From NCBI GenBank assembly GCA_033580375.1, contig GCA_033580375.1_4527.1: a stretch of 64,000 bases of DNA; one strand, given 5' to 3'. Origin of the DNA: a phage. Every line of letters starts with the position of its first letter. Positions within the stretch are counted from its first letter, which is position 1. This document shows positions 216-41,649 of this stretch, piece after piece. Made by a program: the position numbers and the translations under genes. Under the pieces are notes generated by a model. It ran no database searches. It had not been told where the DNA came from and worked only from the letters and a program-made list of their open reading frames with translations.

Positions 216-824
216 TCAGTAACTGACAATAGTCAGATTCCAGATTGTATAATTTCCGTCTTGAATAATAGAATCTACACGCAGTGTAGTCCCTATAGGG
301 AGCATAAATTCACATTCGTCAGATATAAGTCTAGCATTAGACCGTCTTGTCGCTTCAGGGAAAGCTCCATTGAACTCACAAGACGGCGCAGCCAGAATCA
401 TATTAAGCATATGTTCACGGAAGTTGAAAGCAAATGGTGCATCTTTGATGCAGAACATATTAAATGTTCCGTAAAAATTATACGAAGCGAAGTTACGTGC
501 TACACCGAACACCGGGCTGAAGCTCATTACTCTATCAAATTTAATAATACTACCAACGCCTTTATCATCAAGTGTGGCCATAGTTTTCTTAGAGATTCCA
601 CGATACATTGTCTCAGGAACAGAAGACGACCAATTTCTACGAACAATTGCACTTAAATCTTGTTGGATGCTATCAGGCTTGTTTTCCATACACTGCCATA
701 GTACACTTTGTTCAATGTCGCTGAATTGCTCATCGATTTTGTACTGAAGCATATCTTGATAATCTGGACATTGAGCACGTCGAACCATTTCCTCAATTTC
801 ACATTCATTATACGGCATAAACAT
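216..824 (-). CDS. ADP-ribosyltransferase, ModA/ModB-like
   Basis: 202 aa; R (YRGISKK), S-x-S (SFSPVF) and E-x-E (DECEF) motifs in the order expected for Arg-specific ARTs; sits near soc as mod genes do in T4. Confidence 0.5.
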   Translation of the reverse strand: MFMPYNECEIEEMVRRAQCPDYQDMLQYKIDEQFSDIEQSVLWQCMENKPDSIQQDLSAIVRRNWSSSVPETMYRGISKKTMATLDDKGVGSIIKFDRVMSFSPVFGVARNFASYNFYGTFNMFCIKDAPFAFNFREHMLNMILAAPSCEFNGAFPEATRRSNARLISDECEFMLPIGTTLRVDSIIQDGNYTIWNLTIVSY

Positions 825-17818: not shown

Positions 17819-17858
17819 ATTTCTCTCATTTAATTAGTTTACCGTCCTTGGCATTATA

Positions 17859-35106: not shown

Positions 35107-35463
35107 TTAACCCCGGAGTTTATTGAGCTCTTCATAATCAATCCAGGATTCTAGTCCGGATGGCAGGTCACATTCAATGTTCCACAGAAGCTCTTCAATG
35201 GCTTGCAGGCGATTATATTCTTCAACGGTAATGGTAACCATTGGTGCAACCGGTTCTGCCTTTTTAACCATCATATCGTTCATCAGGACGTAAAGGTCAT
35301 CACGAACGACAGTGTCGTTCCAACCCCATGATTTGGCTTCGTAAGCTAATGATGAAGGGAGCACATTTAAAACTTCAATAATAGTTGGAGCATCAGGACC
35401 AAGTTCATTGGCACAAACTTCGTATACATCTTGGAAATCTTTAAGATTTAATGAATATGTCAT
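35107..35463 (-). CDS. hypothetical protein
   Basis: 118-aa acidic ORF. Confidence 0.45.
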   Translation of the reverse strand: MTYSLNLKDFQDVYEVCANELGPDAPTIIEVLNVLPSSLAYEAKSWGWNDTVVRDDLYVLMNDMMVKKAEPVAPMVTITVEEYNRLQAIEELLWNIECDLPSGLESWIDYEELNKLRG

Positions 35464-35723
35464 TTAAAATATTCTCGTAGTTGGTCAAAGCCACCGATCG
35501 AAGTTCCATCAGGAGCAAACACCTGAGGCATAGTCAATCCAACTTGTGATTCACGTCCAAGCTTAACCAGAAGCTCAGCAATTTTCTCATCATCGAACAC
35601 ACCTTTTTCTGGCATCACGTTAATGAATTCGAACGGCTGTTTCTTAACAGTCAGCAATCGTTTCGCATTATCACAATAAATGCATTTATGAATAGTAGAG
35701 TCATACCCGTACACTTTAAACAT
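35460..35723 (-). CDS. nrdC: thioredoxin NrdC (glutaredoxin-like)
   Basis: MFKVYGYDS.IHKC.YCDNAKRLLTVKKQPFEFIN.MPEKGVFDDEKIAELL.KLGR matches T4 NrdC; 87 aa from ATG 35723. Confidence 0.85.
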   Translation of the reverse strand: MFKVYGYDSTIHKCIYCDNAKRLLTVKKQPFEFINVMPEKGVFDDEKIAELLVKLGRESQVGLTMPQVFAPDGTSIGGFDQLREYFK

Positions 35724-36129
35724 TATTTTTCCTTTCGTCAATTAAGCAATTAACACCCAATACAATACATGTAATAAAACCTGTGATACCGATAGAAAAC
35801 ATCAACACTGTACCAAAGAACCAAATGATGTTATCTCGAGTATTTTGCTGAATATCCATCTCACGAATTTCTATAGCTATAGTATCACCTTTATTCAGAA
35901 GCGTATAAAACGATGGTGATACATGCCTGTCAAAAACTCGTCCTTGCTCATCTTTATAGACTGCAATAAATTCTAATTTAGAATATTTTCCTGTAGATTG
36001 GCCTGAGATTAATTCCACTACCTCCACAGGAATTACTTTAGTTTCCATATAAGTATTCTGGCTGTTCCAAATGAATGGAATAACAGCAAAAACTAAAGCT
36101 GCGATAAAACAACGAAGGCTATATCTCAT
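35716..36129 (-). CDS. membrane protein
   Basis: 137 aa with N- and C-terminal hydrophobic segments. Confidence 0.45.
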   Translation of the reverse strand: MRYSLRCFIAALVFAVIPFIWNSQNTYMETKVIPVEVVELISGQSTGKYSKLEFIAVYKDEQGRVFDRHVSPSFYTLLNKGDTIAIEIREMDIQQNTRDNIIWFFGTVLMFSIGITGFITCIVLGVNCLIDERKNNV

Positions 36130-36434
36130 TATAATGTTCTCTCAAATTTGTGGAAGCATTTACGGCATTTCAATTTCAAGTTATCAGTGGTCCAGTTAAC
36201 CAATTGGACTTGGATAGTTCCACATTCCGGACATGGATGTTTTGCTGCCGATTTGGCAGCATTTTCACGTCGTTCAACCATTTTCATTATTTCGTTCCAT
36301 GCCGGAGGAACGAACTCTTCTTCACCATGGATTTTATCTCGCTGAACAAATTCAATCTTTGAACTATCATCAATAAACTTAACTAAGCCATGATTAGTGT
36401 TCATATCAATATCCTCTAGAAGACGTAGGTTCAT
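36129..36434 (-). CDS. zinc-ribbon protein
   Basis: 101 aa; CPECG...CRKC Cys4 arrangement. Confidence 0.45.
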   Translation of the reverse strand: MNLRLLEDIDMNTNHGLVKFIDDSSKIEFVQRDKIHGEEEFVPPAWNEIMKMVERRENAAKSAAKHPCPECGTIQVQLVNWTTDNLKLKCRKCFHKFERTL

Positions 36435-37375
36435 TATAACACCTCAATGGCATTTCGTAAACCGTCCGCTTTCGCATTCAGAGCTTTTAACGATTTAGTC
36501 TGTTCTTTAATCTGAGCTTCGACTTCTTTCAGACGAGATTTGAGATATTCACGTTCTTCGCTCAGGTTATCAACCTTTTCAACTTTAGGTTCTTTAGGCT
36601 TATACTCGTTAGGATTCTTCAGTTTAATTCGAATTCGAGAACTGAATAACATTGAACCGTTATCTTCGGTTTCGTCGAACATTTCAACAACATCCATAGT
36701 CTGTAACATCACGCAGAGTTTATAAGACAACGAACGAATAGTTTTGTTGTGCTTATTAATTTCTTCGGCTTTCATGGTACCGAGATTACGTGAGTAGTAA
36801 TAAGGAACCTGGATATCAATTGATAATGATGCGTTACCATTACCAGTTGGTTTGAATACTGCAGTAACCCAATCTTTAACATGAACTTTATTTGTACGAC
36901 CATCACCGCCTGTGAATAATTTACGAGAATGTTTAAAAAGCATATTCACTTGTTTATTGAATTCACAAGCAAATTTATCAGCAAATTTAGTTTCAGGAAT
37001 GGTAGATAACCAATCAGCCAAATGAGTCTTTTTAACATCATTAACAATAGTGAATTCAACCAAATCGGTTTTAGATGTCACAGATTTAATAAAGCTCGGT
37101 TTCATAAAGTTTTTAATGTTATCACGAGCTACAGTAGAAGATAATAAACGAGAACGTTTGAACCATTGAAGCAGCGTCCCTAATGAATGAGAATACGCAT
37201 TCTGAGTATCTTTACAGATATGATTTTCTTGGCCTGTGTATGTACCAAAATCTCGAAGAATACCACTTACTACATCTCGGTGTGGAACATCAAATCCTAG
37301 TGCACCAGAAGCGCGCTGAGCATGAACGTTAGCGATAAGACCGGCAAAGTATTCAATGTAATGTGAACGCGTCAT
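36434..37375 (-). CDS. hypothetical protein with C-terminal coiled coil
   Basis: 313 aa; heptad-like C-terminus; preceded by conserved promoter cassette. Confidence 0.5.
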   Translation of the reverse strand: MTRSHYIEYFAGLIANVHAQRASGALGFDVPHRDVVSGILRDFGTYTGQENHICKDTQNAYSHSLGTLLQWFKRSRLLSSTVARDNIKNFMKPSFIKSVTSKTDLVEFTIVNDVKKTHLADWLSTIPETKFADKFACEFNKQVNMLFKHSRKLFTGGDGRTNKVHVKDWVTAVFKPTGNGNASLSIDIQVPYYYSRNLGTMKAEEINKHNKTIRSLSYKLCVMLQTMDVVEMFDETEDNGSMLFSSRIRIKLKNPNEYKPKEPKVEKVDNLSEEREYLKSRLKEVEAQIKEQTKSLKALNAKADGLRNAIEVL

Positions 37376-37403
37376 AATATTTTCCTCTCGTTAAGATAGA
37401 AAG

Positions 37404-37435
37404 ATTATACTCCAACCATCCTTGGTTGTAAACTG
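37404..37435 (-). promoter_or_regulatory. early promoter GTTTAC-N18-TATAAT with inverted repeat in spacer
   Basis: minus GTTTACaaccaaggatggttggagTATAAT; 26-nt core identical to copy at 38423..38448. Confidence 0.6.
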
Positions 37436-37437
37436 AT

Positions 37438-38397
37438 TTATGATTTTAATGCATTCATTGCGTTAAAAAGTTTAGAGTACTGCAACTGGAGATTGGTCAC
37501 CACCTGTTGAGCATCACGAAGCTTAGCTTGTGCTTTATCAAGTTCAACGGATAGTTGGTCTACAGTGGCCTTGATTTGATTATAATGGTAGTCTTCGGCA
37601 GGAAGAAGGTCATTAGAAACATTTAGTTTTACTGCAGACAGTTTGCACACATTTGGCAAACCTTTAAACATACCAGATTGTGCTGGAGAATATGCACCTA
37701 GAACCTCTGCATTACCGACTGGTGTTGCTGTAATATTGCCTTCAAACAATGCATTTTCCTTTTTAAGATTTTGATAGTATTCAGAGTCTTTGTGCCACCA
37801 TGGTGCAGGAACCTTTTTACCAATAGATACACGAGCTTGGATAGCGATATGGCCCTTATTCTTGATAAGGTCGACAATATTAAGCTCACGAGAATAAATT
37901 GCTTTAATCTGGTGGATATTATCACCTAAAACTTCCAACGCTTGGTGGAATACACGAGCAACGTTATCATTCTTAGGTTTATACGTAAGAGTGAACTCAT
38001 TCTCACTGATAACCATGATTTCCAACTTATCGTAAGTATATTTCAAATGTTTCATGTTAATTGCTTGAGGACGAATACGAGAAGCAATGGCCATCAGATT
38101 GTTAAGGTTATTCCGGAACTGCTTAGCGAAATATTGTCCTTCACCGTCAATACAAAAATTACGAAGTTTCTGTTTGGCTAATAAACGGCTGAACTCACCA
38201 TTTTTAATGAACTCTTTAACGGGTGTGTTAGTAACGCATTCAAATTGAGTAAACTTACGAGAAGTAATCCCATAATACGAACAGACTTCCTCAATCTCTT
38301 CAGGAGTCTTTACAGGCATACGGATAGGATTAGGTCCTGGAGTATATGCGTTCGAGGTAAATTCTTTGATAAGTTCTCTACGTGTAATAAAAGACAT
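37438..38397 (-). CDS. hypothetical protein with C-terminal coiled coil
   Basis: 319-aa ORF. Confidence 0.5.
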   Translation of the reverse strand: MSFITRRELIKEFTSNAYTPGPNPIRMPVKTPEEIEEVCSYYGITSRKFTQFECVTNTPVKEFIKNGEFSRLLAKQKLRNFCIDGEGQYFAKQFRNNLNNLMAIASRIRPQAINMKHLKYTYDKLEIMVISENEFTLTYKPKNDNVARVFHQALEVLGDNIHQIKAIYSRELNIVDLIKNKGHIAIQARVSIGKKVPAPWWHKDSEYYQNLKKENALFEGNITATPVGNAEVLGAYSPAQSGMFKGLPNVCKLSAVKLNVSNDLLPAEDYHYNQIKATVDQLSVELDKAQAKLRDAQQVVTNLQLQYSKLFNAMNALKS

Positions 38398-38422
38398 TTT
38401 ATATTCCTCATGTTGAAAAAAT

Positions 38423-38452
38423 TATTATACTCCAACCATCCTTGGTTGTACA
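38423..38452 (-). promoter_or_regulatory. early promoter, duplicate of 37404..37435 cassette
   Basis: attatactccaaccatccttggttgta identical 26-mer. Confidence 0.55.
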
Positions 38453-39448
38453 TCATTCCTTAAGAAGTTTTACTACTTGAATAAGATTAGCTCGTTCTGT
38501 TTTATTTTTACCGTTTAAGCCTGCTAATCGTGAGATTTCATCGTCAGTCTGTTGAATAGTTACATTAAGTTCGTTAATCAAAGCTTCAAAGTATTTGATT
38601 TGCTCAGCATGTTTTGATTCAAATTTCTGAACCGGAATAACGTCTTGGTTCAGTTCATCAATAAGGTCTTTAAGAGCATCTTCTTGGTTGATATCGTATT
38701 CAACTTCTTTTATTTCTTCAACGAGCTCGTCTTTATATCTAACGTCTTTTAGTCCTGGTGCTGGTCCTGAAATCTCTTCTTTAAGAGTACAAACATACCC
38801 AATACGGTATCCAATGCCGTCTCGCTTGATATCAACTTCGTCGATAAATCCACAATGTTTAAGTCCAGAGCCGATTATGTCAAAATATCCTTGACGTCGT
38901 CCTTCAAACGTTACACGAACTACTAAGACAGTTTTGCCACCAACCTTTTGAAGCTCACATTTATAAAAGTCTGTTGAACCTGAATAACGTGGATGAGTTT
39001 TAAAGTTCATCTGACGATCTAGGCCCATTTGTAAACGTGCTGTTACAGCCATAAAACGTGTTTGGTTCTCGTTAAGATGAGCAACGATCCATTTCAAAGG
39101 CATTTTACACTGTTCACGACCGAACAAGTCGGTATGTCCTAGATTACGCAGGATGTTGTTAGAGTTAATCATCGACAGAACGTTAAGTTTATTCAGCGCG
39201 CTGAAGATTCCATCAGCCATTGATTTTCCATAACCTTTACACGCTTTAATAAGTGCTCGCGGCAGATTAGTATAGATTTCGGACGGCATATGAAAATCAA
39301 ATTTACTAGTCAGTAATTGATGAACCTGGATAGCAATTTGCTCATAATTAAGTGCTCTGCGATCGTTATGGTCTTTAAACCACACTTTAATCTGTGAAGC
39401 ACATAAACCGTTAATTTCATGTTTTACCGCATCAGATGTAATGCTCAT
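38453..39448 (-). CDS. hypothetical protein with C-terminal coiled coil
   Basis: 331-aa ORF. Confidence 0.5.
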   Translation of the reverse strand: MSITSDAVKHEINGLCASQIKVWFKDHNDRRALNYEQIAIQVHQLLTSKFDFHMPSEIYTNLPRALIKACKGYGKSMADGIFSALNKLNVLSMINSNNILRNLGHTDLFGREQCKMPLKWIVAHLNENQTRFMAVTARLQMGLDRQMNFKTHPRYSGSTDFYKCELQKVGGKTVLVVRVTFEGRRQGYFDIIGSGLKHCGFIDEVDIKRDGIGYRIGYVCTLKEEISGPAPGLKDVRYKDELVEEIKEVEYDINQEDALKDLIDELNQDVIPVQKFESKHAEQIKYFEALINELNVTIQQTDDEISRLAGLNGKNKTERANLIQVVKLLKE

Positions 39449-39510
39449 AACTATTTCCTCAGATTGAATTGGAACTCAAAACCATTATAACCCGTCCTTG
39501 GGTAAAGCGT

Positions 39511-40038
39511 TTATGCGTGAACCGTCTTTAAACGTTCTTCAAATTTCCGAAGAGTACTAATACGTTCTGCTTTCTGTTTTGTGTAGTTTGCAATACGTTC
39601 TGAAGTGAGAGCGTATCGTTCGTTTACTGTTTCTTTCATGAAGTCAGGGATTTCACGAGAAGCTTTAATTTCATCAAACTTATCGAGTACTGCCTGGTCT
39701 TCAGCAATTAAATTTTCGTACATCTCGATATCTTTCTTAATGAACTCGATATCTTCCTGGGTTACTTTGGATAAACGAAATGCTTTATCCTTTTTGTACT
39801 GCTCGTTGGTTTCACGAGACCAGAATAATGTACGTTTTTTATTAGTGTTTTTGTAGACTTCCACAATTCCAACTAAATCGATGATAACAATCCAATTCCA
39901 GCGAGATTTGAAAATCTGACCTCCGTCCACGGTAATCTCGTTACCATAAGCAACGTCATTAAAGAACTTGCTTTGTGCTTCAGATTTAAATTTACCGTCG
40001 TTATAATTTACCAGGTTGAAAATATCTTTAGCGTTCAT
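39511..40038 (-). CDS. hypothetical protein
   Basis: 175-aa ORF. Confidence 0.5.
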   Translation of the reverse strand: MNAKDIFNLVNYNDGKFKSEAQSKFFNDVAYGNEITVDGGQIFKSRWNWIVIIDLVGIVEVYKNTNKKRTLFWSRETNEQYKKDKAFRLSKVTQEDIEFIKKDIEMYENLIAEDQAVLDKFDEIKASREIPDFMKETVNERYALTSERIANYTKQKAERISTLRKFEERLKTVHA

Positions 40039-40045
40039 GTTTTAC

Positions 40046-40094
40046 CTCCAGTAGTTGATAGGTCTATAATAACATAACCATAGACCTTGTAAAC
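40046..40094 (-). promoter_or_regulatory. early promoter with inverted repeat (aggtctat / atagacct)
   Basis: minus GTTTAC...TGTTATTATAGACC; arm contains SD of downstream gene. Confidence 0.5.
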
Positions 40095-40096
40095 AA

Positions 40097-40372
40097 CTAA
40101 AAGAAACTTTTTTCGGTATTTTTTCCACTGAACCAAACAGACTTCGGGATTTTTTGTAATTTTTCAGATTTAAGTTTCTCTTCCTGTTCTTTCTTATACG
40201 CATCCTTGTCGTACTGGAGCATCTCTATGGCATTCTTTTGCAAACGATCTAAGGTAATTAAGGCTTTAGTTTTTCCTTTCAAGGAAGAGTCCTGGCGAAC
40301 CTCCTCGCTATATTGTTCTGTTGCACTAATCATACGATGGGCATATAATTCACGACTGGCTTGGATATTCAT
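40097..40372 (-). CDS. hypothetical protein
   Basis: 91-aa ORF. Confidence 0.4.
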   Translation of the reverse strand: MNIQASRELYAHRMISATEQYSEEVRQDSSLKGKTKALITLDRLQKNAIEMLQYDKDAYKKEQEEKLKSEKLQKIPKSVWFSGKNTEKSFF

Positions 40373-40379
40373 AATTTCC

Positions 40380-41372
40380 TCATTTCAGTAAAGTTACTTC
40401 GGAGATTTCCTCCCAACCATCTTTATCAGTTGAAATAAAATCTGCTACATAAAGAGCCGTACGTAATGATACATTGCGAAGACGAGATATGTTAGCCTTC
40501 ATCCAGGACAATGCTTTGTACGTTTCTGCATCCGTCAGGCCACGTTTCTGCATCATGTCAGTAGATAATATTACATCTTCAACTCGGACCATAATCTCTT
40601 CATTAGAGTGTACTCCAAGGTCCAAATACACTGAACGAGATACTAAAGCTTGAAGGTGTGGAGCAAGTTTCGAACCGCGTTCTAACTCTTTATCGATATC
40701 AACGTTTGTAATGAAAACGATAGTACCTTCAAACTCAAATTCTTTATCTATACCCTTATCATCAAGATAAGATGATGCAGTGCTCCAGCAAACTTTGCGT
40801 TTATCGCCAGTATCTAATGCTGCTTTAAGAAGGTTCAAGATGTCCATATCAGAGAATACGTCAACGTCATCGATTAAGAGAACGCTGTCTGCATCACGGT
40901 TGAGCCAAAGTTGTTCGTAAAGGCCAATACCAGAGATTTTGCCATTAATGCTTTTGTATTTGATGAAACCATTATCATTAGCATTATTAAGCGCTTTATC
41001 CAGAGAATATGTCTTACCAATACCGGCTGCACCTGAAATAATGAGTGAACGAATTTTGCCATCGATAATGCCATTCGTCATCATGTTCATTACTTTAAAG
41101 CGTTTGTTGATACGAGTTTTCATATCTTCAGCGTTTTCAACAACTGCAACTGGTGATGTCTCAACTCCTTCCATTACGATGTCTGATTTGAAGACCCATA
41201 CTCCACGTTCAGAACCATCAATCATAACGAAAATTTTACCGTCACCTAAGTGGGAACATTCAGGATTAAGCTTTGCCGGGAACCATGTCTTTGTGGCAAC
41301 ATAAGAACCAGAGATTTCGTTATTACGATAGATACCTTTTTTGATTTGAACGTTGAACATTTTATTCTCCAA
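40380..41372 (-). CDS. P-loop NTPase (AAA-like)
   Basis: 330 aa; Walker A SGAAGIGKT and Walker B LLIDDVD. Confidence 0.55.
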   Translation of the reverse strand: MENKMFNVQIKKGIYRNNEISGSYVATKTWFPAKLNPECSHLGDGKIFVMIDGSERGVWVFKSDIVMEGVETSPVAVVENAEDMKTRINKRFKVMNMMTNGIIDGKIRSLIISGAAGIGKTYSLDKALNNANDNGFIKYKSINGKISGIGLYEQLWLNRDADSVLLIDDVDVFSDMDILNLLKAALDTGDKRKVCWSTASSYLDDKGIDKEFEFEGTIVFITNVDIDKELERGSKLAPHLQALVSRSVYLDLGVHSNEEIMVRVEDVILSTDMMQKRGLTDAETYKALSWMKANISRLRNVSLRTALYVADFISTDKDGWEEISEVTLLK

Positions 41373-41430
41373 ATTTACTCATTTCGTTTCGATAGGTCTA
41401 TAATAACATGTTTAAAGCAAAAGTAAACAA

Positions 41431-41649
41431 TTATTTGCGACGAGATTTTTTGGTAAGAGGTTGAAAGAACACTGCTTTACCAGCAGGAGTCAAAGTGACT
41501 CGTAATGCATTACCGATTCCTAAGGATGCTTTAACTAGACCTTTAGCTTTCAGTTCACCGAATGCTTGACGTTGGTCTGCATCACGAGTGTTAACCATAA
41601 GACCTTTATCACCAGCTTCACGAATCATTTCTAACATTTTGGTTTTCAT
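41431..41649 (-). CDS. hypothetical protein
   Basis: 72-aa ORF. Confidence 0.4.
   Translation of the reverse strand: MKTKMLEMIREAGDKGLMVNTRDADQRQAFGELKAKGLVKASLGIGNALRVTLTPAGKAVFFQPLTKKSRRK

Follow-up and report, generated by a model that had tools for sequence, protein, structure and literature searches.

The window analysed here, a stretch of 64,000 nucleotides (nt) of phage DNA from GenBank assembly GCA_033580375.1, carries three consecutive open reading frames (ORFs), called A, B and C below, that belong to known, essentially uncharacterised T4 protein families. Our overall explanation, which we consider fairly probable, is that they form an RB69-type nrdC.6/.5/.3 array that diversified by duplication of genes together with a promoter cassette, with counter-defence as its likeliest role. 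Judged by its sequence, the window comes from a Mosigvirus, a T-even phage of the RB69-like kind; the DNA of the locus is 96–97% identical to that of many Mosigvirus genomes, and relatives at >95% identity occur in more than a hundred sequenced phages. An earlier note on this DNA, made from the letters alone, had placed three ORFs of about 320 amino acids (aa) in a row, and their limits hold to the nucleotide:

36434 to 37375, minus strand: ORF A, 313 aa, NrdC.3-type (NrdC.3/NrdC.4 family); phrog_1435, E = 2.4e-102, residues 1–313.
37438 to 38397, minus strand: ORF B, 319 aa, NrdC.5-type; Pfam DUF7235 (PF23882), E = 4.2e-119; phrog_2351.
38453 to 39448, minus strand: ORF C, 331 aa, NrdC.6-type; phrog_2257, E = 3.6e-127, residues 1–331.

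The gaps between A and B and between B and C measure 62 nt and 55 nt, respectively, and another 62 nt lies 5′ of C. By BLASTP, ORF A is 56% identical to T4 NrdC.3 over 313 aa, ORF B is 23% identical to T4 NrdC.5 over 330 aa, and ORF C is 29% identical to T4 NrdC.6 over 270 aa. The family of ORF A, phrog_1435, also contains T4 NrdC.4, and its precomputed Pfam assignment is PF26897. ORF B matches PF23882 with 398 bits (cut-off 30), its residues 15–318 aligning with profile positions 1–307, and T4 NrdC.5, which scores 421 bits on PF23882, falls into the same Pfam and PHROG families. The homologues of ORF C carry the precomputed Pfam assignment PF26899, and phrog_2257 is also the family of T4 NrdC.6. 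The earlier note had set its account against the prospect that the three were clear homologues of well-characterised T4 proteins; clear T4 homologues they are, but the T4 proteins in question are not well characterised.

BLASTP finds no similarity among A, B and C, and their bodies had been described as not obviously paralogous. The profile, structure and genome comparisons proposed in the earlier note bear on this point, and the first of them overturns the description for A and B. When genus-level alignments of 14 gene families of the same loci were compared with hhalign, giving 91 family pairs, the NrdC.5 and NrdC.3/4 families aligned over 267 columns with a probability of 95.4% (E = 1.9e-8), the top of the 91 pairs, with unrelated pairs scoring at most 18.8. 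The match persists once the coiled-coil tails are cut (93%, E = 3.4e-7, 185 columns), and the NrdC.3/4 and NrdC.5 families, and hence ORFs A and B, are therefore shown by profile alignment to be distant paralogues over nearly their full length. Pairs involving the NrdC.6 family take ranks 2 and 3 among the 91, and this family scores 30.6 against the merged A and B profile (P = 0.002; unrelated families, 12–21), suggesting that ORF C is probably a third, more remote member of the same family.

ORF C resembles A and B in size, in the predicted order of helices and strands, and in the kind of terminal helix. The AlphaFold2 models of A and C, which have a predicted local distance difference test (pLDDT) score of 58 and 50, respectively, are co-linear in secondary structure: four N-terminal helices reach to residues ~90–95, a long helix runs from ~118 to 141–153, and a beta hairpin from residue 162, a helix, more strand, a linker and the terminal helices follow. 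The agreement is one in the order of elements, between models of low confidence. Foldseek searches of BFVD returned for each query its own family together with uncharacterised 300–370-aa proteins of distant T4-like phages (Serratia PS2 and CBH8; Pectobacterium PM2; Enterobacter IME523; Acinetobacter Acj61, 133 and fHyAci03), which matched with probabilities of 0.9–1.0 and TM-scores of only 0.2–0.35 and serve as a lead only. Against the PDB, Foldseek with model A gave nothing below E = 0.01. One of these phages, Acj61, which belongs to a different subfamily of T4-like phages, carries (L035, 35452–37472) a tandem pair of a 330-aa p120 and a 304-aa p121 between nrdC and nrdC.10, both ending in heptad-like helices; p121 is the Foldseek match of the ORF C model, and neither protein has sequence similarity to the three families by hidden Markov model (HMM) or hhalign comparison.

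The genome comparison places all three ORFs in a conserved arrangement. It covered the loci of T4, two other Tequatroviruses, Gaprivervirus (VR7, TH40 and TH54), Dhakavirus MX01, CUA3 (genus not stated in its record, layout the same as in MX01) and several Mosigviruses. ORFs C, B and A form a tandem block between nrdC.8 and nrdC.2 within the nrdC–mobD accessory region, all on the minus strand, with NrdC.8, NrdC.10 and NrdC.11 upstream of C and a NrdC.2-like zinc-ribbon ORF, NrdC.7, the thioredoxin NrdC and gp49 downstream of A. NrdC.6-type, NrdC.5-type and NrdC.3/4-type genes recur as a triad of constant order in 4/4 T-even genera (Tequatro-, Mosig-, Gapriver- and Dhakavirus). The gene orders, with numbers standing for the nrdC.x genes, are:

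T4:.8,.7,.6,.5,.4,.3,.2,.1, nrdC.
VR7 and MX01:.8,.6, small ORF,.5,.4,.2,.1, nrdC.
The window:.8,.6,.5,.3,.2,.7, nrdC.
moha (Mosigvirus): as in the window, plus the small ORF between.6 and.5.

What varies between the genera is the copy number of the NrdC.3/4-type gene, the small membrane ORF and nrdC.7; in Mosigvirus, nrdC.4 is missing and nrdC.7 is relocated. The NrdC.7-type membrane protein (35716–36129, minus strand) is encoded between nrdC.2 and nrdC in the window and between nrdC.8 and nrdC.6 in T4, a relocation between genera; in both, the MotA-box cassette has stayed behind nrdC.8. The distribution of the families is narrow: among 50,697 phage records, the three families and nrdC.8 are confined to the four enterobacterial T-even genera. 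An exhaustive HMM search with the A family against 1.84 billion representatives matched 5 proteins, so that no deeper alignment exists. Word-indexed protein searches found relatives only at identities of at least 56% (A), 80% (B) and 68% (C), and scans of IMG/VR and metagenomes added few extra loci.

Each ORF stands where its T4 counterpart does. ORF B occupies the same slot as T4 NrdC.5, between the NrdC.6-type and NrdC.3/4-type genes, and shares with it a predicted C-terminal coiled coil ending in ...SKLxNAxNALK. However, it is only 23–29% identical to T4 NrdC.5, has a longer N-terminus and lacks two insertions of the T4 protein, and in most Mosigviruses the gene has its own promoter and is not coupled to a small upstream ORF. 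The position of the ORF A type just upstream of nrdC.2 is conserved, and the stop codon of ORF A overlaps the start of nrdC.2 as that of nrdC.3 does in T4; Mosigvirus has one copy of this family whereas T4 has two (NrdC.3 and NrdC.4), and Gapriver- and Dhakavirus have the NrdC.4 type only. The ORF C type sits directly downstream of nrdC.8 in all 4 genera, and ORF C, like T4 NrdC.6, lies there behind the same MotA-box cassette. The two differ in their bodies (26–29% identity), in a ~30-residue insertion before the tail of ORF C, and in the end of the T4 reference protein, which at 275 aa lacks the terminal coiled coil kept by other Tequatroviruses.

Two reference records deserve a comment. The T4 reference nrdC.6 (L001, 9067–9894) ends in a different short sequence, the gene of other Tequatroviruses (L005, 5958–6845) encodes 295 aa, and the conserved NrdC.6 tail is found in other Tequatroviruses and in the other three genera; the T4 end looks like the product of a frame change near the 3′ end of the gene. 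In the RB69 reference (NC_004928, 51014–51972; protein P0053), nrdC.5 matches ORF B by tblastn in three pieces only and is annotated with 300 aa, at 77% query coverage, which suggests frameshifts or sequencing errors in that record.

The heptad-rich C-termini described in the earlier note stand, the coiled coils themselves being a prediction. With a crude heptad score, compared with 200 shuffles of the same protein, the peak falls in the last 30–55 residues of each ORF and exceeds 200/200 shuffles for A (window 276–303), 200/200 for B (277–304) and 198/200 for C (281–308). AlphaFold2 gives ORF A a single long terminal helix at 272–312 (pLDDT about 70–80) and ORF C a broken run of helices at 257–330 of low confidence, so the predicted coiled coil is weakest for C. 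The tails are delimited as follows:

36437 to 36562, minus strand: predicted tail of ORF A, residues ~272–313 (AlphaFold2 helix 272–312; heptad window 276–303).
37441 to 37599, minus strand: predicted tail of ORF B, residues ~267–319 (heptad score above all 200 shuffles; supported region 267–319).
38456 to 38635, minus strand: predicted tail of ORF C, residues ~272–331 (heptad score above the 95th percentile of shuffles at 278–310; AlphaFold2 helices 273–330 with breaks).

In two of the three families, the tail has changed less than the body. The flanking NrdC.8, NrdC.10, NrdC.11 and gp49 retain 66–88% identity between genera, whereas the bodies of the three families retain 19–29%, the exception being A against its direct T4 orthologue NrdC.3 (55%). 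The tail of ORF C is 56–59% identical between genera, versus 26–29% for its body, and that of ORF B 28–43%, versus 19–22%. The ORF A tail is 71% identical to that of T4 NrdC.3 and only 18–31% identical to those of NrdC.4-type members. Of the three, B varies most within Mosigvirus (80–99% by tblastn), and nearly all C homologues are at 95% or above.

The earlier note had also reported an identical 26-nt promoter core before two of the ORFs. The repeat is exact, but it is 27 nt long and the −35 hexamers of the two promoters differ. The sequence, TACAACCAAGGATGGTTGGAGTATAAT, lies at 37404–37430 and 38424–38450 on the minus strand, two copies at 0 mismatches (0/100 shuffles), and the 64-kb window holds no further copy at 3 mismatches or fewer. 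It spans the −10 hexamer, the 17-nt spacer and 4/6 bases of the −35 hexamer of the cassettes before A and B; a cassette of another type precedes C:

38424 to 38452, minus strand: early-type cassette before ORF B, TGTACA-N17-TATAAT, repeat copy 1, promoter scan 10/12.
37404 to 37432, minus strand: early-type cassette before ORF A, TTTACA-N17-TATAAT, repeat copy 2, promoter scan 11/12.
39484 to 39510, minus strand: MotA-box (middle-type) cassette before ORF C, AACGCTTTA, 13 nt and TATAAT, with the hairpin ACCC-AAGGAC-GGGT embedded.

With the T4 early promoter defined by −35 GTTTAC(A/T), a ~17-nt spacer and −10 TATAAT, consensus matching shows the cassettes before A and B to be predicted T4 early (sigma-70) promoters. 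The site before A (GTTTACA-N17-TATAAT) is the best sigma-70-like site of the region, and the site before B reads ATGTACA, a weakened −35. In a T4 middle promoter, a TAnnnT −10 stands ~12 nt downstream of a MotA box, (a/t)(a/t)TGCTT(t/c)A; the box before C (CGCTTTA-N13-TATAAT) has one mismatch to that motif, and this site is a predicted MotA-type middle promoter. In the annotation of the near-identical phage SA79RD, the equivalent of the site before A is called sigma-70-like and that of the site before C similar to a T4 middle promoter. None of the three intergenic regions has a minus-strand terminator-like site. We note another promoter-like site inside the 3′ end of ORF A (36433–36461, minus strand; TTTACG-N17-TATAAT with an upstream TG), whose −10 shares nucleotides with both the ORF A stop and the start of the NrdC.2-like ORF (36129–36434; overlap TAATG) and whose equivalent in SA79RD is annotated as early-promoter-like.

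Cassettes of this kind recur. The MotA-type cassette found before C also follows nrdC.8 in T4, VR7 and MX01, and in RB69-type genomes, which have at least 4 early-type copies in their first 77 kb, more copies follow dexA and the gene after it; the copy before A matches the one after dexA exactly along ~50 nt. Indel polymorphism occurs at the cassette, and the adjacent gene content varies between genera and within Mosigvirus.

The comparison of genera points to how the copy before ORF B arose. In every genus, a NrdC.5-type stop codon is followed by an early-type cassette ahead of the NrdC.3/4-type gene, and in Gapriver- and Dhakavirus the NrdC.5-type gene lacks its own promoter and overlaps with the small ORF upstream of it. 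In moha, a second copy of ~78 nt, ~90% identical, lies upstream of ORF B, which is thereby flanked by direct repeats; this copy consists of the last seven NrdC.5-type codons (MNALKS-stop), the cassette and the 5′ untranslated region (UTR) up to the Shine-Dalgarno sequence. In moha (L012, 6975–7276), a predicted membrane ORF of 66 aa, which Gapriver- and Dhakavirus also have, stands upstream of the NrdC.5-type gene, and after it comes this 22-nt relic of the NrdC.5-type gene end; small ORF and relic are kept in 1/146 matching records, that of moha. In the window and in most Mosigviruses, a deletion, evident from the comparison with moha, has joined the cassette to the ORF C stop codon; the −35 was clipped in the process, from GTTTACA to ATGTACA. 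The simplest reading is that gene and cassette were duplicated in tandem, and that most of the upstream copy was then lost. The unit of change, judged from comparative anatomy, would be a gene plus the cassette in the intergenic region behind it: Mosigvirus would have copied the last 7 NrdC.5-type codons and the downstream cassette to a place upstream of ORF B, and later, in most Mosigviruses including the window, the 66-aa membrane ORF and the gene relic would have been deleted, so that the ORF C stop abuts the cassette. Such a history of duplication and deletion would leave two genes behind an identical 27-nt core. T4, in which the paralogues nrdC.4 and nrdC.3 both have a cassette of this kind in front, fits this mode of duplication as well.

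It is possible, though we doubt it, that the 27-nt identity reflects purifying selection on the promoter and an RNA hairpin within it, or gene conversion, and not a recent duplication. The architecture of −35, 4–5-bp stem, AAGGAY loop, GGAG and TATAAT is indeed kept in four genera with only compensatory changes in the stem, and the ~50-nt identity between the copies after dexA and before A speaks for this alternative too. However, in moha a coding relic and the 5′ UTR are included in the identity, which marks a segmental copy, and copies are not always homogenised: in L003 the loop reads AAGGAC before B and AAGGAT before A. Selection and duplication are not exclusive, moreover, and this alternative mainly adds to duplication of gene and cassette.

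The earlier note had suggested module swapping behind a constant regulatory cassette. In its strict form, with unrelated ORFan bodies exchanged behind a constant mobile cassette by recombination between cassettes, we regard this as unlikely. The part that stands is the cassette, which is repeated twice here and again after dexA and the next gene, with direct repeats on either side of ORF B in moha and gene content that differs at its junctions (nrdC.4 absent, nrdC.7 relocated, the small ORF present or absent). The bodies, in contrast, are not unrelated modules swapped in: they are syntenic homologues in four genera and not lineage-specific insertions, A and B are paralogues, and none of the three slots holds a foreign gene in the 13 loci examined. 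In addition, the deletion junction in the window has no cassette-to-cassette homology, so not every rearrangement here was cassette-mediated. The pattern is thus better described, as far as sequence comparison can tell, as tandem duplication with rapid divergence than as shuffling of foreign modules.

Recombination of this type has been proposed for PeSL elements, cassettes of promoter and stem-loop regarded as recombination points in the hyperplastic regions of T4-type phages (Arbiol et al. 2010, PMC2839356; Comeau et al. 2014, PMC4122927), and such elements have been placed in this very region of T4/PST (PMC4122927), which speaks for shuffling. The cassette here resembles them as a repeated early promoter in hyperplastic regions, beside accessory genes and indels between relatives, and the direct repeats around ORF B in moha would be compatible with PeSL recombination by mini-circle, deletion or insertion. 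It differs in its stem-loop. The published stem-loop, in many cases G/C-rich, precedes the −35 and serves as a terminator, whereas the one described here lies inside the 17-nt spacer, has a 4–5-bp stem and a fixed AAGGAY loop without a U tract, is not terminator-like, and is also present in a MotA-type promoter.

This hairpin is found in every cassette, early- and middle-type, in the four genera (loci including L001, L007, L010, L013 and L014), always between the −35 or MotA box and the −10, with a stem of 4–5 bp and a loop of AAGGAT or AAGGAC. In the window, the copies are:

38433 to 38448, minus strand: predicted hairpin CAACC-AAGGAT-GGTTG, copy 1 (covariation; minimum-energy and centroid fold of the intergenic RNA).
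37413 to 37428, minus strand: predicted hairpin CAACC-AAGGAT-GGTTG, copy 2 (covariation; minimum-energy fold).
39490 to 39503, minus strand: predicted hairpin ACCC-AAGGAC-GGGT in the cassette before ORF C.

The loop is fixed and the stems vary (AACC/GGTT, AGCC/GGCT, AGCC/GGTT, ATCC/GGAT, TTCC/GGAG, CCAC/GTGG, TACC/GGTA, TATC/GATA and ACCC/GGGT). Among 12 distinct cassette variants, set against 500 shuffles, 95% of stem cells are paired, versus 64% in the shuffles (0/500 as high) and 23–53% with the partner slid; both sides have changed in 4/5 stem pairs, and the covariation score is 0.79, versus 0.19 in shuffles (0/500). Since G–T pairs are C–A mismatches on the other strand, the structure would form on the sense strand, that is, in mRNA. 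The hairpin belongs to the minimum-energy fold of 6/6 intergenic RNAs tested, and the thermodynamic z-scores of these RNAs are unremarkable (−0.8 to −1.4, one positive). Conservation of the predicted hairpin is thus shown by covariation and not by stability. Rfam gave no match at E ≤ 1 in 35400–41600. Transcripts from a cassette's own promoter start downstream of the hairpin, which would therefore be present only in read-through mRNA from upstream promoters.

The loop recalls two kinds of known RNA site. The consensus selected in vitro for CsrA (SELEX) is RUACARGGAUGU, with best binding when GGA lies in a hairpin loop; the loop and closing sequence here, CAAGGAUG, equals the core CARGGAUG of that consensus; upstream of nrdC.4 in T4, the copy reads ACAAGGAUGU. 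CsrA sites usually have a second GGA at the Shine-Dalgarno sequence, and here a GAGGA Shine-Dalgarno lies ~35–40 nt downstream of the hairpin. RegB cuts GGAG/U, with GGA unpaired, in intergenic regions of T4 early mRNAs, and early-type cassettes have GGAG directly after the hairpin; some copies, however, have GGAC, and the GGAG context only partly matches the strong-site consensus GGAGRAYARAA. The putative hairpin sites may thus offer a lead to CsrA or RegB. We rejected a 4-codon mini-ORF (ATGGTTGGAGTATAA) starting in the loop, which is missing from AAGGAC variants. A similar hairpin, GCC-AAGGAC-GGT (17840–17853, minus strand), lies between the gp43 stop and the next ORF; a TATAAT stands just before it and the next start ~25 nt after it, so that it is not in a promoter spacer.

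As to function, the published reference point is T4 NrdC.5. A T4 deletion mutant regains the ability to infect cells bearing Dsr1, a SIR2-type defence system, when nrdC.5 is supplied in trans; on laboratory hosts T4 can do without the gene, which is lost in viable deletion mutants (PMC9391042). Other products of the T-even accessory regions also act against host systems: NrdC.1 inhibits Septu (bioRxiv 10.1101/2025.11.20.689424), gp49.2 inhibits OLD (PMC13096335), and Pin is a Lon inhibitor (record annotations). From the fast divergence, narrow distribution, presumed early expression and dispensability we infer a counter-defence role; we give about even odds to A, B and C all acting in counter-defence against different targets. 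They would be non-essential accessory proteins, presumably made before replication from early- and middle-type promoters, in which the variable body may bind one specific immune protein of the host. Oligomerisation may come from the coil, which in B, C and the NrdC.3 lineage of A has kept more identity than the body. ORF B would be the counterpart of T4 NrdC.5 against Dsr1, and A and C would have other targets.

A different early function, in nucleotide metabolism, host take-over or coiled-coil scaffolding, appears least probable of the alternatives considered here. The genes adjoin nrdC, nrdD and nrdG, T4 NrdC.5 is the sole member with a phenotype, and many GenBank records name the nrdC.x neighbours, including homologues of A, B and C, 'thioredoxin'. 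We rejected that label, since a Pfam search finds no thioredoxin domain in ORFs A, B and C; it looks like a carry-over from the nrdC.x name, propagated as an annotation error. Searches of Pfam, NCBIfam and PDB sequences revealed neither a thioredoxin nor any other enzymatic domain in the three proteins: NCBIfam gave no match at all, and family profiles run against PDB sequences gave weak coiled-coil noise only. The extreme divergence relative to the neighbours, the dispensability in T4 deletion mutants and the proven anti-defence function of adjacent genes fit accessory arms-race genes better than metabolism.

Several observations weigh against the explanation of the locus as a duplicated, counter-defence array. 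Among the NrdC.3, NrdC.4, NrdC.5 and NrdC.6 types, only NrdC.5 has a published phenotype, and at 23–29% identity to T4 NrdC.5, ORF B may not have kept the anti-Dsr1 activity. Both the activity of the promoters and their early timing are deduced from consensus matches and the T4 literature. The link of C to A and B is statistically insecure, with hhalign probabilities of 2–14% and P = 0.02 for the bodies alone; the AlphaFold2 models of A and C, built from alignments of 29 and 5 sequences, are of low confidence, a shared fold finds no backing from structural superposition, and the B and C families were not among the proteins that Foldseek returned from BFVD with model A. The tail of family A is no better conserved than the body in comparison with NrdC.4-type members, and the deletion junction in the window lacks homology between cassettes.

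In two linked readings, the NrdC.3/4, NrdC.5 and NrdC.6 types could make up a single ancient and diversifying family of immune antagonists anchored by coiled coils, and the AAGGA hairpin could be a post-transcriptional switch; we advance the pair as speculative and unlikely. Each body would then be tuned to a different host defence protein, with tandem structural counterparts perhaps even in Acinetobacter T4-like phages, and RegB, CsrA or the ribosome could treat read-through and own-promoter mRNAs of the same gene differently. Alternatively, the hairpin may have an anti-Shine-Dalgarno-pairing role, or another one.

The finding is real but largely ordinary, and current views are not overturned. 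The modest new points are the paralogy of NrdC.3/4 and NrdC.5, the split between body and tail, the history of promoter duplication and the covarying hairpin in the spacer. The locus adds to a growing T-even counter-defence island (Pin, gp49.2, NrdC.1 and NrdC.5), and paralogy to the anti-Dsr1 protein NrdC.5 marks two or three families as candidate immune antagonists, for which a variable body joined to a coiled-coil tail, better conserved in two of the three, provides a domain hypothesis. It is also a clean, small example of array growth in which a gene appears to have been duplicated together with its promoter cassette, and the spacer hairpin may reveal a regulatory layer in T-even early mRNAs.

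Farther upstream, the NrdC.10 homologue (40380–41372, minus strand; 330 aa) has weak P-loop/AAA and STAND-NTPase matches in Pfam (E = 1e-4 to 5e-2) and, in contrast to its fast-evolving neighbours, is 77–82% conserved between genera.

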